Positions 187-6,099 of a DNA stretch of 36,031 nucleotides are shown one piece after another. Position numbers and translations under genes: made by a program. Position 1 is the first letter of the stretch; the number at the start of each line of letters is the position of its first letter. The stretch comes from a virus (Duplodnaviria; Heunggongvirae; Uroviricota; Caudoviricetes): IMG/VR virus record IMGVR_UViG_3300042940_001739; one strand, written 5' to 3'. The notes under the pieces are model-generated. The model was not told the origin of the DNA, searched no databases, and worked only from the letters and a program-made list of their open reading frames with translations.

Positions 187-2658
187 ATGGCAGAAAGAAT
201 AGTTTCACCAGGCGTATTTACGAACGAAGTAGATCAATCGTTTTTAGCAGGTGGCGTAGCACAAATTGGTGCAGCAGTCGTAGGACCAACAGTAAAAGGT
301 CCAGCATTAATTCCTACAAAAATTTCTTCTTACAACGAATTTGTTAAAACGTTTGGATCTTATACAGATGATTCATATGTACCATATGTTGTTCAAGATT
401 ATTTGCGTAATGGGAATGTAATTACAGTAACACGTCTTTTATATGAAGATGGTTACAAATTAACTAATGGTGCATTAGCAATTATTGCATCATCGGGTTC
501 AGGTGCAACTAAAGTTGAAGTAGTAACTCACGTATTGCATCCAACTCAAGCAGTAACATATAATGCAACTACAGCATTATTTGAAGATTCAGTTTTACAA
601 GATGCTGGTTCAGGATCATTTGCAATTAAATTATCAGGTTCATATTCAGCGCCGTCAAACAACGCAATTGGATTTGATGGATCGTTTTTAGTTGCAGAAG
701 GTATCGCAATTTCTTCATCAATTGTAAGTACATCAAACAAGTATGTAACAAAAGTATTTGGATCAGGTCCGAAATCAGTTGACTATCCAGTATATGTTCA
801 ATATGAAAATAAATCTGCGGCAGATGCATTTAACAACTTAGCAGATGTAACAACGAAATTAGCAATTTTATCAAACTACGAATTTTTGCAAGATTATTCA
901 ACAGCAGCAACGCCATGGATTACATCTCAAAAAATTGGTAGCATAACAAAAGATTTAATTCGTTTCCATACATTATCTCACGGTACTGCAATTAACCACG
1001 AAGTTAAAGTAAGCATCCGAGACATTAGAACAGCAGACGAAGTTTCAGATCCAAATGGATACGGAACATTTACAGTTGAAGTTCGTCGAGTTAATACTAC
1101 GGATATTAAGAATTCTCCATTTGCATCTCAAGACACTGATAAAATTCCTGAAGTTGTAGAGACATTCTTAAATGTAAATTTAGATCCAGATTCGCCAAAA
1201 TATATTAGTAGAGTAATTGGTGACAAATATCAAACAATTAATGATTTGAATGAAATTAGAGTTTCAGGTGATTATCCGAATAAATCTAATTTTATACGAG
1301 TTGAAGTTGATAACGGCGTTTCAAATAAAACTAATGAGAAAACATTGGTACCATTTGGATTCCGTGCACTAAGCTCACCAATGCCAATGGCAAGCGGTTC
1401 AGTTAATTTCACAGCAACAACATATAAAACATCTCAAGTTCAAACTACATATTCTAAAAACAATTATTTTGGATTTGACTTTACAGTTGCAAACAACTTG
1501 AATTATCTAGCACCAATACCAACATCAGGATCAAACACAGGTAGCAATGTTGATTTTTATTTAGGTAACGTAAGTCAAGATGCATCAGCTGCTTTCCCAA
1601 CGTCAGCAACAGCTTATTCAGGTTCATTAGAAACTGCATTAATAGCAGGAACATTTACAGACAATATTTCACAATATACACGTAAATTTATTGTACCGAT
1701 GCAAGGTGGATTTGACGGAGCTCGTCCAAACTTACCAAAATATTCAGGAACAAATATTACAGCAGCAAATACATTTGGATTTGATTGTTCTGGTACAACT
1801 ACTCCTGGTACAAAAGCATATGATAAAGCATTTGCATTATTAGCAAATTCTGAGTACTATGATATTAACATGTTAGTTACTCCTGGTATTATTGATAGTT
1901 TACACTCAATAGTAACTAGTGCGGCTAGAAACTTGGTAGAAGCTCGTCAAGATACATTCTATGTAATGGATTCAAATGCATTGACAGACAGTTTATCAGA
2001 TGTAGTTTCTCAAGTAACAACAATTGACAGCAATTATACTTCAACATATTGGCCATGGGTTAGAATTGTTAATCCTTCTAAAAATGTTCCATTATGGGTA
2101 CCACCTAGTGTTGTAGTACCTGGAGTATTAGCATTCAATGATCAAGTTGCTGCACCATGGTATGCACCAGCAGGTTTGACTCGTGGAGGTTTAACAACAG
2201 TAACTGATACTTATATGAATTTATCTCAAGCTAATCGAGATACATTGTATGAAGCACGTGTTAACCCTATTGCGAACTTCCCTAACGAAGGACAAGTAAT
2301 TTGGGGTCAAAAGACTTTACAGGCTCGCCCAAGTGCATTAGACCGTGTAAATGTTAGACGATTATTGATTGCAGTTAAGAAATATATTGCTTCATCAACT
2401 CGTTATTTAGTATTTGAACAAAATAACACTGCAACAAGAAATAGATTCTTAGCAATTGTTAATCCTTATTTAGAACAAGTAAGAGCACAACAAGGTTTAT
2501 CAGCATTCAAAGTGGTAATGGATGGTACAAATAATACACCAGACGTAATAGATCAAAATATTATGTATGGACAATTATTCCTTCAGCCAACAAGAACGGC
2601 AGAATTTATTATTTTAGATTTCAATATTCAACCGACAGGGGCAAGTTTCCCGGAATAG
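187..2658 (+). CDS. Contractile tail sheath protein (T4 gp18-like)
   Basis: N-terminal SPGVFTNEVD..GAAVVGPTVKGP; C-terminal YWPWV, PWYAPAG..RG, LYEARVNPI, WGQKTL, RVNVRRLL, PTRTAEFIILDF; AGGAG SD upstream. Confidence 0.96.
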   Translation: MAERIVSPGVFTNEVDQSFLAGGVAQIGAAVVGPTVKGPALIPTKISSYNEFVKTFGSYTDDSYVPYVVQDYLRNGNVITVTRLLYEDGYKLTNGALAIIASSGSGATKVEVVTHVLHPTQAVTYNATTALFEDSVLQDAGSGSFAIKLSGSYSAPSNNAIGFDGSFLVAEGIAISSSIVSTSNKYVTKVFGSGPKSVDYPVYVQYENKSAADAFNNLADVTTKLAILSNYEFLQDYSTAATPWITSQKIGSITKDLIRFHTLSHGTAINHEVKVSIRDIRTADEVSDPNGYGTFTVEVRRVNTTDIKNSPFASQDTDKIPEVVETFLNVNLDPDSPKYISRVIGDKYQTINDLNEIRVSGDYPNKSNFIRVEVDNGVSNKTNEKTLVPFGFRALSSPMPMASGSVNFTATTYKTSQVQTTYSKNNYFGFDFTVANNLNYLAPIPTSGSNTGSNVDFYLGNVSQDASAAFPTSATAYSGSLETALIAGTFTDNISQYTRKFIVPMQGGFDGARPNLPKYSGTNITAANTFGFDCSGTTTPGTKAYDKAFALLANSEYYDINMLVTPGIIDSLHSIVTSAARNLVEARQDTFYVMDSNALTDSLSDVVSQVTTIDSNYTSTYWPWVRIVNPSKNVPLWVPPSVVVPGVLAFNDQVAAPWYAPAGLTRGGLTTVTDTYMNLSQANRDTLYEARVNPIANFPNEGQVIWGQKTLQARPSALDRVNVRRLLIAVKKYIASSTRYLVFEQNNTATRNRFLAIVNPYLEQVRAQQGLSAFKVVMDGTNNTPDVIDQNIMYGQLFLQPTRTAEFIILDFNIQPTGASFPE

Positions 2659-2711: not shown

Positions 2712-2720
2712 ACTTTGCTG

Positions 2721-2734
2721 ATATTTATATTAAA
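2721..2734 (+). promoter_or_regulatory. Putative late promoter ATATTTATATTAAA
   Basis: Exact copy of the recurrent 14-mer, directly after the terminator and 16 nt before the tube ATG (2751). Confidence 0.7.
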
Positions 2735-2750
2735 CATAAGGAATATAGAA

Positions 2751-3272
2751 ATGGCATTACAAGATCAAATCAATCCAAACTTAGCATTTGCGAATGATAA
2801 TGAGATATTTCAAACAGCATATCAGTGGGAACCTAAAAAATCCCATCAATTTATTATGTATTTAGGCGATGTTCCATCTTATTTGATTAAAGCTTCAGCT
2901 AAACCTCAAATATCTAACGGTGAAATTGCATTAGATCATATCAATGTTAAACGATATGTAAAAGGTAAATCAGTTTGGAATACAATCACAGTATCATTAT
3001 ATGATGCAATTGTTCCATCAGGAGCACAAGCAGTAATGGAATGGGTTCGTTTACATCATGAATCAGCAACAGGTAGAGATGGATATTCATCATATTATAA
3101 AAAAGAAGTTCGTTTACACCAATTATCTCCACTAGGCGAAGTAATTGAAGAATGGATTTTGCACGGGGCTTACATTACAGATTCTAACTTTGGATCTTTA
3201 GATTGGGGTTCAGAAGATGTTGTTAGCATTGAATTAACATTGAGATATGATTGGGCTTTCTTAAACTTCTAA
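2751..3272 (+). CDS. Tail tube protein (T4 gp19-like)
   Basis: Follows the sheath; WNTITVSLYD, VMEW, EEWILHGAY, FGSLDW..IELTLRYD pattern; start moved from 2715 to ATG 2751 (AAGGA SD; promoter motif lies upstream). Confidence 0.9.
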   Translation: MALQDQINPNLAFANDNEIFQTAYQWEPKKSHQFIMYLGDVPSYLIKASAKPQISNGEIALDHINVKRYVKGKSVWNTITVSLYDAIVPSGAQAVMEWVRLHHESATGRDGYSSYYKKEVRLHQLSPLGEVIEEWILHGAYITDSNFGSLDWGSEDVVSIELTLRYDWAFLNF

Positions 3273-3290
3273 TCATTATGATATTATTTT

Positions 3291-3315
3291 AAAGGGGCTT
3301 TATTGCCCCTTTTTT
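3291..3315 (+). terminator. Rho-independent terminator after tube gene
   Basis: AAAGGGGC-TTTATT-GCCCCTTTTTT. Confidence 0.88.
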
Positions 3316-3324
3316 ACTGTACTT

Positions 3325-3338
3325 ATATTTATATTAAA
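3325..3338 (+). promoter_or_regulatory. Putative late promoter ATATTTATATTAAA
   Basis: Exact copy after the terminator, upstream of ATG 3360. Confidence 0.7.
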
Positions 3339-3359
3339 TAAGTTATAAGGACAAATAAT

Positions 3360-4115
3360 ATGGCATTAACAGACAGAGTTAACAACGACAACATTATTAA
3401 TTTGGCTCGTCAGCAATACGAAGCTAAACAAAAAAGTAAATTACCTACAGTTATAGTAAATCTTCCGAGTCAAGGAAAAATTTATCCGAAGTCACATCCA
3501 TTAGCCCACGGTACGGTCGAAATGCGATATATGACTGCATATGATGAAGATATATTAACAAATGCATCTTATATTCGAGAAGGCTTAGTTTTTGATAAAT
3601 TATTAGAAGCTATTATCATTACTCCAGTTAATGTAGATGATATTGCTACAGTTGATAAAGATTGTTTAATTATCAATGCACGTATATTAGCATATGGTTC
3701 TGATTATCCTGTAATAGTATCTGAGCCTAAAACGGGTAAACAACTTGAAAAAACAGTTGATTTATCTAAAATACAACATGTTCCATTTAATTTAGAAAAT
3801 GATGAAAATGGTGAGTTTGAATATAAAACTGATAAATTTACATTGAAGTTTTCATATTTTAATACAGGGACAATTAGTGATATAACGATATCAGGTTTAT
3901 TGAAAAGAATTATTCGAGAAGTAAATGGTAAACGTGATTCTGCAGAAATTGAAAACTTTCTTCGTTACGAATTGTTATCTCGAGATTCAAAACAATTTAG
4001 AGAATACTATATAAATAATACTCCTAGTTTAGATTATAACTATGAATTCGAAGGTGAAGATGGGAGCACCTTCAAAACTACCTTTCAAGTTGGAACAAAC
4101 CTTTTTTGGATTTAA
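3360..4115 (+). CDS. Tail/baseplate-hub assembly chaperone (T4 gp26-like); upstream frame of a putative frameshift pair
   Basis: LPSQGKIYP..VEMRYMTAYDEDIL..D..LIINARILAYG pattern; lies between the tube and tape-measure genes. Confidence 0.75.
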   Translation: MALTDRVNNDNIINLARQQYEAKQKSKLPTVIVNLPSQGKIYPKSHPLAHGTVEMRYMTAYDEDILTNASYIREGLVFDKLLEAIIITPVNVDDIATVDKDCLIINARILAYGSDYPVIVSEPKTGKQLEKTVDLSKIQHVPFNLENDENGEFEYKTDKFTLKFSYFNTGTISDITISGLLKRIIREVNGKRDSAEIENFLRYELLSRDSKQFREYYINNTPSLDYNYEFEGEDGSTFKTTFQVGTNLFWI

Positions 4116-4332
4116 TCCAGACGACCGAGTAAAGTTACATGATAATATATTCAATCTAATTTGGCACGGTGACGGCCGATGGGATTGGGATACTATATAT
4201 CATATGCCTATATTTTTACGACGCTTTTATATTAAAAAAGTAACTAAAATTCTAGAAGAGCGAGAAGATGCTCGTGAAAAACAGCGAGAAGCTATAGAAC
4301 AGCGTAAAAACAACAAAAATCCTAGGCGATAA
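4102..4332 (+). CDS. Small tail-assembly chaperone segment (T4 gp51-like / lambda T-like), probably expressed by frameshift from 3360..4115
   Basis: FFGFNPDDRVKLHDNIFNLIWHGDGRWDWDTIYHMPIFLRRFY; frame overlaps the end of the upstream gene at a T6 run; the ATG at 4042 has no obvious RBS. Confidence 0.7.
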   Translation, partial: FFGFNPDDRVKLHDNIFNLIWHGDGRWDWDTIYHMPIFLRRFYIKKVTKILEEREDAREKQREAIEQRKNNKNPRR

Positions 4333-4346
4333 ATATTTATATTAAA
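4333..4346 (+). promoter_or_regulatory. Putative late promoter ATATTTATATTAAA
   Basis: Exact copy upstream of ATG 4360. Confidence 0.7.
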
Positions 4347-4359
4347 TGGAACTAAATCT

Positions 4360-6099
4360 ATGAGTCTAAGCCAACAAAATATCATTTCTAAATTAAAACA
4401 ACAACCTAGACACGGTATGGCTGATGATATAGGCGGCATAAAACTATTAGCTACACTTAAAACTAGTTTCACTGAGTTAACTCCATTGTTAACAATGTTC
4501 AATGACGAAAACGTTCAAATGAATGTTGGGTTATCACGAGTATTGGGAACAGCTGAAAGTTTAATTGAAAAATTCAAAAACTATACTGCTGAAGTTAATA
4601 TATTAGAACAACGAAATAAAGAATTAAATAAATCATTTGGCATTAATAGTATTGCCGCAGCTAAGTTAAGTAACGAAATAACTACTTCTGCAGAAAAGCT
4701 AGGCGTATCAACAGCACAAATGAAAAAATATGTTGGTAGCATTAAAAGTATTGTTCCAACGATTGATGTATTAAAAGCTCAAAGCAACGATTACTATCAA
4801 GGATTAGCAAGAGTACAGCAAGTACTAACTACAAACTTAGGCTTAACTGAAGAACAAGCAGCTTCATATTCACTATTTGCAGGACAAGGCGGTAAAAATG
4901 CTGAGGATCAACTAGCTTCTCAAGCAGCACTAGCAGCAGAAATTGAACGTACTACTGGGATGCAAGGATCATTTAAAGTGATTAGTGAAGGGATTGCAGA
5001 AACAACAGCAGATCTTCAATTACAATACGGCCGAATACCAGGAAGTTTAGAAGTTGGTATATTAAAAGCCAAAGCTTTGGGGTTTGCTATGGCTGATTTG
5101 AATAAAACGGCTGACAACTTATTAAATATTGAGTCTAGTATTGGACAAGAATTAGAATATCAATTATTAAGCGGACATCGTTTAGTTGATACTAAAGGTA
5201 AAAGTTTAACTAATTCGTATCGAGAAGCCACATTGCAAGGAAATGCATCTAAACAAGCAGATACATTGAATACAATTTTAGAGCAAGAAGGCGATACGTT
5301 AAAAAATAACTTGTTTGCTAGAAAGCAAATGTCTGAGTTATTAGGTATGGATGAAGCTTCATTATCTCGTGCATTACAGAAAAAGTCTATCTTAGAAAGT
5401 CTTCCAGGAGGAGAATCATTATTTAATGAAACCGGAGACGCTCTTTTAGAAGCAGCTAAAACAGCTGGTGCTACTAAAGAACAAATAGACGCATTAGTTA
5501 AGTCTGAAGATACTCGTACAACGGACCAAAAGATTGAACAAACTTTAGCTATGATGGTTGATAAAGGAATTAAAGCTCAACTAGTAGACCAAGTAGGTGC
5601 AGTAACTGGAGCAAGCACAGCTTCGACTCTAGCAGCAAAAAATATAAACATGCCAGGTGCTGGAGCATCATCTGGTGCTATAACAGCATTAGGTAGTCAA
5701 CAAATTGGTGTCGACTATGTACAAGAAATGGATACCGCATTAAAAGCTGCAAAAGATTTTTTTAAAAACTTTGTCGAAACAATAACTAATGCTAATAATT
5801 ATAAGTTAGATAAATCTAAATTAGCAACAACTAAGAACGTCGACGCTACATTTGATGACTTTATTGCAACACCGACAGGTTATGGCGATCGAATCTTATT
5901 AGCTGGCGAAGACACATTTGCATTGAATAATAATGATACAATTGTTGGTGGAACTAATTTAGGTGGAGGTGGAGGTGGAGGCGACGATAAATTATCACAA
6001 GTAATGATGCAGGTAGGCGCAATGATTGTAAGTGCAATTAATCGCAAACAAACAGAACAATTATTTAGTGGTGGAATTAATGCACCAACATATGGATAA
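4360..6099 (+). CDS. Tape measure protein (putative)
   Basis: 579 aa, Ala/Gln/Leu-rich helical sequence directly after the chaperone pair; size similar to T4 gp29. Confidence 0.7.
   Translation: MSLSQQNIISKLKQQPRHGMADDIGGIKLLATLKTSFTELTPLLTMFNDENVQMNVGLSRVLGTAESLIEKFKNYTAEVNILEQRNKELNKSFGINSIAAAKLSNEITTSAEKLGVSTAQMKKYVGSIKSIVPTIDVLKAQSNDYYQGLARVQQVLTTNLGLTEEQAASYSLFAGQGGKNAEDQLASQAALAAEIERTTGMQGSFKVISEGIAETTADLQLQYGRIPGSLEVGILKAKALGFAMADLNKTADNLLNIESSIGQELEYQLLSGHRLVDTKGKSLTNSYREATLQGNASKQADTLNTILEQEGDTLKNNLFARKQMSELLGMDEASLSRALQKKSILESLPGGESLFNETGDALLEAAKTAGATKEQIDALVKSEDTRTTDQKIEQTLAMMVDKGIKAQLVDQVGAVTGASTASTLAAKNINMPGAGASSGAITALGSQQIGVDYVQEMDTALKAAKDFFKNFVETITNANNYKLDKSKLATTKNVDATFDDFIATPTGYGDRILLAGEDTFALNNNDTIVGGTNLGGGGGGGDDKLSQVMMQVGAMIVSAINRKQTEQLFSGGINAPTYG

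Follow-up and report, generated by a model that had tools for sequence, protein, structure and literature searches.

A probable programmed +1 frameshift at a conserved UUU_UGG site in a gp26-like tail assembly chaperone gene of a tailed phage

Frameshifts in tail assembly chaperone (TAC) genes have been described for G/GT of phage lambda and E/E+E' of phage P2 (Levin 1993; Xu, Hendrix, Duda 2004; both as cited in PMC5009743), and G/GT frameshifting is regarded as conserved in long-tailed phages "except T4" (Atkins et al., PMC5009743). In the G/GT system the usual shift is -1 on an XXXYYYZ heptamer. The tail chaperone frameshift of phage Mu is reportedly -2, and the tsh gene of Listeria phage PSA is said to shift +1 at CCC_UGA. 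A +1 shift is used by the TAC gene of the haloarchaeal myovirus HSTV-2 (PMC5009743), and the SEA-PHAGES-derived training data of PRFect include 350 forward TAC shift sites (PMC10274946). Thus, the G/GT system does not prescribe one direction of the shift, and +1 shifts in tail chaperone genes are already known. The HSTV-2, PSA and PRFect cases resemble the locus described here in being +1 recoding events in tail or tail assembly genes, but they use other shift sites (CCC_UGA and others) and belong to unrelated chaperone families.

Two further systems are close to this locus in the nature of the site. In prfB, which encodes RF2 and shifts +1 at CUU_UGA, the P-site tRNA slips from YUU onto UUU. 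In Yersinia, a +1 fusion of YopN and TyeA was reported at UUU-UGG (Ferracci 2004, cited in PMC3789692), a site that was not confirmed by mutagenesis (PMC3789692). T4 gp26, the best known member of the protein family treated below, is listed as a hub assembly chaperone (PMC3004832). No frameshift in gp26-like or PF12322 genes was found described in the searchable open-access literature, whose silence is not proof of absence.

The window, i.e. the whole stretch of 36,031 nucleotides that was analyzed, belongs to the genome of an uncultured lake phage, represented by one 53.5-kb contig (53,477 bases) with zero tRNA genes. The stretch is present in lake and freshwater metagenomes from many studies, and a DNA-level search of a phage collection gave a match of 109 nt only. 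The features that bear on the proposed shift are the following.

187 to 2658, plus strand: tail sheath gene, 823 aa (phrog_23 tail sheath, E 7e-67; PF04984, PF17482)
2715 to 3272, plus strand: tail tube gene, 185 aa (phrog_4542 tail tube, E 1.3e-24; weak PF06841 gp19 match)
3360 to 4115, plus strand: ORF1, zero-frame product, predicted short form of a gp26-like chaperone, 251 aa (PF12322, phrog_150, AF2 model)
4101 to 4109, plus strand: putative shift site CUU_UUU_UGG, E, P and A codons (triplets conserved in 103 distinct +1 loci; bracketing stops)
4108 to 4332, plus strand: +1-frame extension, 74 codons and stop, predicted C-terminal domain of a 323-aa long form (switch of the conserved frame, 217 phmmer relatives, fold of a homologue)
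4360 to 6099, plus strand: candidate tape measure gene, 579 aa (tblastn to the annotated tail tape measure protein of Flavobacterium phage immuto)

The match of the candidate tape measure gene to the immuto protein has an E value of 6e-7 and 27.6% identity over half of the query; the 579-aa product matched no Pfam or PHROG family. The order tube, chaperone, tape measure is the same in Microcystis phage Mel-JY01 and in immuto. An earlier note on this DNA had placed a chaperone pair between the tail tube and tape measure genes, and the gene order, with the tube upstream and the candidate tape measure downstream, agrees with this placement.

ORF1 ends with AAC CTT TTT TGG ATT TAA (4098-4115), so that a run of six T residues (4102-4107) lies inside its 3' end. 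Across the junction the +1 frame reads ACC TTT TTT GGA TTT AAT. From 4033 on, behind a TAG at 4030-4032, this frame is open as far as a stop at 4330-4332, and the ORF listed for it by the program spans 4042-4332. The description of the ORF1 end, the T run and the +1 ORF in the earlier note was correct on re-reading of the window. The note had left open whether the two frames are joined by a +1 or a -2 shift, and its fusion sizes of 323 aa for the former and 324 aa for the latter matched the recomputed readings; the predicted junction peptides are TTFQVGTNLFGFNPDDR for +1 and TTFQVGTNLFFGFNPDDR for -2. The motif YTTTTTTGG does not exceed chance in the window, where two occurrences were found against 2.19 expected in DNA of 33% G+C. 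Hence the case rests on comparison with relatives, and the motif count was not used as evidence.

From this comparison we conclude that the gene between tube and tape measure very probably specifies a gp26-like tail or hub assembly chaperone that is made in two forms by a +1 shift. Several traits are shared with lambda G/GT. The gene lies between tail tube and tape measure; it is predicted to yield a short and a C-terminally extended product with a common N-terminal part; the slip site precedes the zero-frame stop by a few codons; and the second ORF is without a start of its own. The N-terminal domain of ORF1 may in addition have the TAC fold, which was predicted with modest Z values. In contrast to G/GT, the shift would be +1 on UUU_U instead of the usual -1 on an XXXYYYZ heptamer, and it is +1 in every shifted locus; ORF1, with 251 aa, has extra domains and belongs to PF12322, which is not a named TAC family.

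Two scans of IMG/VR yielded 160 classifiable related loci, plus one odd case. The second ORF was in the +1 frame in 134 of the 160, and 26 were in-frame fusions; in the first set of loci, all 81 of 81 had the second ORF in the +1 frame. Both parts were also found by tblastn in Mel-JY01, immuto and an uncultured 484-kb phage, and in all three the second part occupied the +1 frame. The programmed shift put forward in the earlier note was thus borne out among homologues, the +1 arrangement and a slippery U run being kept in 134 of 160 loci. The codons at the putative E, P and A positions were distributed as follows among the 103 distinct +1 loci.

TTT TTT TGG: 51 loci
CTT TTT TGG: 36 loci
TTT TTT TAC: 7 loci
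TTC TTT TGG: 5 loci
CTT CTT TGG: 2 loci
ATT TTT TGG: 1 locus
TTT CTT TGG: 1 locus

In all 103, a U comes next to the P-site codon, which is either UUU or CUU, implying that the P-site tRNA can re-pair at +1 in every one of these loci, on UUU_U or on a prfB-type CUU_U. The A-site codon is UGG in 96 and UAC in 7. The most distant relative, L003, has TTT_C at the site. The in-frame clade reads GAY ATA TTY GGN ATA (D-I-F-G-I) at the corresponding position, with T and C used freely at the wobble position of the Phe codon and without a T run. The T that is invariant in the shifters is therefore selected as a nucleotide and not for the amino acid. Stops bracket the site on both sides. A +1-frame stop lies 11 nt upstream of TGG in 5 loci and 17 nt upstream in 11 loci, and the zero-frame stop of the distinct +1 loci lies 6, 12 or 18 nt downstream of the site. 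Provided that the site is shared, these stops confine the shift to the few codons between them.

In a FastTree phylogeny of 118 distinct ORF1 parts, the +1 sequences (101 rows) and the in-frame sequences (17 rows) were separated by one branch with a support of 99, so a single change accounts for the distribution of the two states. The tree carried a long-branch warning and the position of its root is not fixed, and accordingly neither state is called ancestral. The earlier note had seen in-frame homologues as a possible objection to the shift. Fusions do exist, but they form one separate clade without the T run; the fused protein is thus real, and the shift is not refuted. In none of the 101 diverged sequences was the shift lost, although deletion of one T would fuse the frames, which argues that the unfused arrangement is under selection. 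This selection presumably reflects a need for two products. The need for two forms is itself deduced from the retention of the shift, and the long form alone apparently suffices for the in-frame clade. One relative, L157:2908-3956, has an in-frame junction (G-V-D-F-F-G-L-A-P-E-Y-K), but further upstream its gene falls into two ORFs, 2908-3414 and 3504-3956, owing either to an error of assembly or to decay of the copy.

The in-frame proteins also bear on the choice between +1 and -2. In a -2 event, tRNA-Phe would move from 4104-4106 back to 4102-4104 and give a 324-aa product with N-L-F-F-G-F-N-P at the junction. The T6 run of the window permits perfect re-pairing at -2, and the relative frame alone does not separate the two directions. 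However, in-frame homologues of all lineages carry [D/N]-hydrophobic-F-G-x-x-P at this point (D-I-F-G-F-S-P in the homologue P0202), which agrees in length with the +1 product. Distant clades, whose +1 products read D-F-F-G-L-x-P, show this length as well, and a -2 shift would add one residue. Moreover, the TTC TTT TGG, CTT CTT TGG and TTT CTT TGG members re-pair poorly at -2 and well at +1. Of the two directions named in the earlier note, +1 accordingly fits the in-frame homologues better than -2, which would give a product one residue longer. On these sequence grounds we favor +1, and a -2 shift appears improbable.

Homopolymer indels are common sequencing errors, and an indel in the T run had been raised by the earlier note as a source of the split. 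The split would then be an error of sequencing or assembly, or else a recent pseudogenizing mutation. The stretch is identical in contigs from runs of many studies, and two independent lake metagenome contigs (X13 and X14) span the site with 0 differences and 0 gaps. The independent assemblies thus carry the same T6 without an indel, each contig representing the major form. A protein search with ORF1 gave 632 relatives; the best 120 of these 632 were all 244-276 aa long and covered ~77% of the fused query, so none of these 120 is fused. The 103 distinct loci have the same arrangement, with purifying selection on the +1 frame. An error or a pseudogene can be considered effectively refuted.

A fusion could also arise before translation if RNA polymerase slipped on the T run and made a share of the mRNA one U shorter, which would then be read by standard translation. 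Some bacterial and IS genes make use of such transcriptional slippage (PMC5009743), and a homopolymer is present at the junction. The runs are short, however (T6 in the window, T3-T7 in the family), and members with T4 (TTC TTT TGG) or T3 (CTT CTT TGG and TTT CTT TGG) keep the +1 arrangement. In the one contig that came from an RNA library, X18, the run is of full length, a result that speaks for the major form only. We regard polymerase slippage as highly improbable.

X18, a 524-nt contig from a marine metatranscriptome library, is 97% identical to positions 3935-4458 of the window and has no indel at the junction. It hints at close relatives in marine samples and perhaps at transcription of the gene there, carry-over of DNA being the alternative.

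Whether the second ORF is part of a fused protein or a gene in its own right was judged from the pattern of conservation. Before the site, nucleotide conservation was relaxed at the third codon position of frame 0, and behind it at that of frame +1, with the switch at the junction; upstream, conservation of the coding type was seen in frame 0 only, and downstream of the junction the +1 frame is under purifying selection. When the fusion predicted for the window was aligned with the in-frame proteins, P253, H260, F264, L266, G272, Y280, P283 and Y290 were invariant, the series beginning immediately behind the junction. When phmmer was run with only the extension as query, it returned 217 relatives, most of them short gene calls and four of them full-length in-frame proteins (306-318 aa). 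The latter four align to the window fusion across the junction. The extension alone matched no Pfam or PHROG family. A model of one of the four, the in-frame homologue P0202, built from a 120-sequence alignment, had a pLDDT of 95.3 and a pTM of 0.89 and was predicted as one compact protein, in which the extension corresponds to helices at 226-291 with pLDDT about 95.

These data weigh on a further alternative, in which ORF2 is translated separately as a small protein, either from an ATG at 4042 or 4060 or by re-initiation after the ORF1 stop. The window does have both ATGs in the +1 frame, the one at 4060 being preceded by the Shine-Dalgarno (SD)-like sequence GAAGGTGAAG in a purine run, and short ORFs of this kind have been called as genes in many metagenomes and in Mel-JY01. 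Yet the ATGs are not conserved, one being found in 32 of 57 close relatives and the other in 35 of 57. Upstream of the site, 49 of the 103 distinct loci are without an ATG in the +1 ORF, 16 lack ATG, GTG and TTG alike, and in some a +1-frame stop lies 11 nt before the site. The confinement of upstream coding-type conservation to frame 0 also stands against a start in that region. Downstream, the first ATG usually lies 32 codons into the extension, and ten loci have none; residue conservation in the extension sets in at the junction, before any such ATG, and its conserved H, F, L, G and Y residues precede this usual first ATG. In addition, the in-frame fusions are modelled as one protein. The observation in the earlier note that the second ORF has no convincing start of its own therefore holds, independent initiation not being conserved among relatives, and a separately translated ORF2 seems very unlikely.

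In the close clade, conservation extends to all three codon positions in a purine-rich segment at 4050-4073 (GAAGGTGAAGATGGGAGCACCTTC; E-G-E-D-G-S-T-F), which precedes the shift site by 34-57 nt; its level is far higher than third positions usually show. It includes the SD-like GAAGGTGA and the non-conserved ATG 4060. Its distance from the shift site is too great for a prfB-type stimulator.

The annotation of the cultured relatives does not contain the predicted long form. In the GenBank record of Mel-JY01 (L001:2932-4012), the two parts are annotated as separate hypothetical proteins. In that of immuto (L002:2998-3961), most of the second part is unannotated, and a 36-aa "hypothetical protein" is given from the first ATG inside the extension.

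ORF1 matched the Pfam family PF12322 (T4_baseplate) with 39.1 bits (gathering cut-off 24.5) over residues 30-232, corresponding to 3-200 of 219 profile positions, and phrog_150 (baseplate hub) with an E value of 1e-11. The AF2 model of the window ORF1 had a pLDDT of 85.8. It was compared with 48,161 PDB representatives by a tool whose confidence line is Z = 8. The three top matches, all below this line, were 3fgx (Z 6.5, rmsd 5.6, 89 aligned), 3klu (YqbN; Z 6.2, rmsd 3.7, 82 aligned) and 2ob9 (HK97 gp13; Z 5.8, rmsd 8.1, 91 aligned), followed by 5ir0 (ORF19 of a Vibrio cholerae PICI-like element, function not assigned; Z 4.5) and then by matches with Z 4.3 and 3.0. The region of ORF1 that matched 3fgx, 3klu and 2ob9 comprises residues ~18-121. 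These three entries are exactly the three solved tail assembly chaperones (PMC9603447), and 3fgx and 2ob9 also head the PDB list for the model of the in-frame homologue P0202. With Z values that are modest and below 8, the models are suggestive of a TAC fold in the N-terminal domain of ORF1.

Other searches were consulted alongside. The family profile gave only noise against PDB sequences, i.e. no link to TACs at the sequence level, and Foldseek with the full-length model found nothing in the PDB (best E 0.14). In BFVD, where the structures on both sides are predicted, 64 matches had E <= 1e-3, reaching down to 2e-13 and including baseplate hub proteins; the match to gp26 of Aeromonas phage 25, likewise between predicted structures, had an E value of 3.4e-5. 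A CxxC...CxxC motif (C98, C101, C211 and C214 in P0202), likely a zinc site, is replaced by E, T, G and G in the window. All four cysteines are kept in 36 of 84 aligned relatives and are replaced in the whole clade of the window. T4 gp26, the in-frame clade and most of the distant +1 clades keep the motif.

T4 gp26 (208 aa) aligned to the ORF1 part only, with an hhalign probability of 34%, which is weak. It resembles the short form in that it ends G-L-K-E-F-F-E-L-L-stop, which by eye shares a G-x-x-x-F-hydrophobic C terminus with it. In contrast to the window, T4 gene 26 has neither an extension nor a slippery run (TTC TTT GAG), and it adjoins genes 25 and 51 instead of lying between tube and tape measure. 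By sequence, T4 gp26 corresponds to the short form only. The earlier note had spoken of a gp26/gp51-type pair. The first half of this assignment stood, ORF1 being gp26-like through PF12322, but the second did not, as neither ORF2 nor its family showed any likeness to T4 gp51 (hhalign probability 3.5%). A second product of T4 gene 26 (L164:3803-4429), termed 26' (95 aa), is annotated from an internal start; this is another route to two related proteins in the gp26 gene family.

Taken together, the programmed-frameshift reading is strongly supported by the comparison of related loci. We propose the following course of events. Most ribosomes would read CUU UUU UGG AUU UAA and stop, giving the 251-aa short form. 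A fraction would pause at the point where tRNA-Phe sits on UUU 4104-4106 in the P site and the A site displays UGG. The tRNA-Phe would then slip by +1 onto UUU 4105-4107, and decoding would resume at GGA 4108-4110. The shifted ribosomes would produce the 323-aa long form (...N-L-F-G-F-N-P...) with a helical extension of ~74 aa. By analogy to lambda G/GT, the shared part may bind the tape measure protein, and the extension may recruit another tail or hub component in a fixed ratio. We infer that slippage is ribosomal, that it occurs in the P site and that there are two products, as well as their ratio and their binding partners.

No stimulator was recognized near the site. Folds of 60 nt gave no sign of conserved RNA structure, with mean z values of -0.13 downstream and -0.83 upstream relative to mononucleotide shuffles. 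Nor was an SD-like stimulator apparent, the best anti-SD duplex within the 24 nt upstream having a mean of -3.3 kcal/mol in the shifters versus -3.2 in the in-frame relatives. UGG is not rare in the phage's own ORFs, where it occurs at 15 per 1000 versus 26 per 1000 for GGA. In-frame TTT_TGG is found in four other ORFs of the 53,477-base contig and in-frame CTT_TGG in two, none of them after a YTT codon. The ordinary frequency of UGG and the four further in-frame UUU_UGG sites imply that the tetranucleotide alone cannot be highly efficient; low-level +1 shifting at the other in-frame TTT_TGG and CTT_TGG sites of the contig is possible.

A second candidate site, formed by the last sense codon and the stop, was considered. 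It reads UUU_UAA in most close relatives and AUU_UAA in the window, and a shift there predicts L-F-W-I-N-P instead of L-F-G-F-N-P. Two observations spoke against it as the main site: the distant clades end in AAG, GTA, GAG and other codons, and the position is occupied by G instead of W in the in-frame relatives. UUU_UAA may serve as a back-up shift site in the close clade, the AUU_UAA of the window being less apt.

With prfB the site at UUU_UGG shares the predicted slip of a P-site tRNA from YUU onto UUU, and the minority variants CTT CTT TGG and TTT CTT TGG use the CUU_U tetranucleotide of prfB itself (PMC5009743). Unlike prfB, where the A site holds a stop, the phage site has a sense codon (UGG or UAC) there; the search for an SD-like stimulator upstream of it gave none, and the proposed role is the supply of two structural-assembly products and not feedback control. 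The YopN-TyeA case is similar in that two adjacent ORFs are fused and that relatives have single in-frame genes. It differs in concerning a regulator of type III secretion with low-level shifting, whereas about a hundred diverged sequences have kept the phage site.

On the strength of the sequence comparison, the locus is most likely a variant of the G/GT chaperone frameshift. Judged by the searchable literature, its occurrence in the PF12322 family and the use of a UUU_UGG sense-codon site in about a hundred diverged sequences are new; the same holds for the sister clade of in-frame genes and for a TAC fold as predicted for gp26-like proteins. The long form is absent from the current annotation of the cultured relatives Mel-JY01 and immuto. 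The loci constitute a large, deeply conserved natural family of putative sense-codon +1 sites (UUU_UGG) without a recognizable stimulator. The in-frame sister clade is a built-in control, and the family offers material for the question of what sets +1 efficiency in bacteria.

A wider reading can be offered, which we regard as possible but rather doubtful. The gp26-like "baseplate hub" proteins might be the TACs of much of the contractile-tailed phages, T4 having kept the short form only, and the ancestral state might have been a two-form chaperone made by a stimulator-free UUU_UGG +1 shift, whose efficiency could follow the supply of Trp-tRNA in the host and so tune tail assembly to host physiology.

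The results place the T4 gp26 family at the position of the tail assembly chaperone and, on the evidence of a suggestive structure prediction, in the fold class of these chaperones. With this placement, the old claim that T4 lacks a G/GT equivalent becomes directly testable, and the putative +1 site would link the protein family of T4 gp26 to the G/GT system of lambda.
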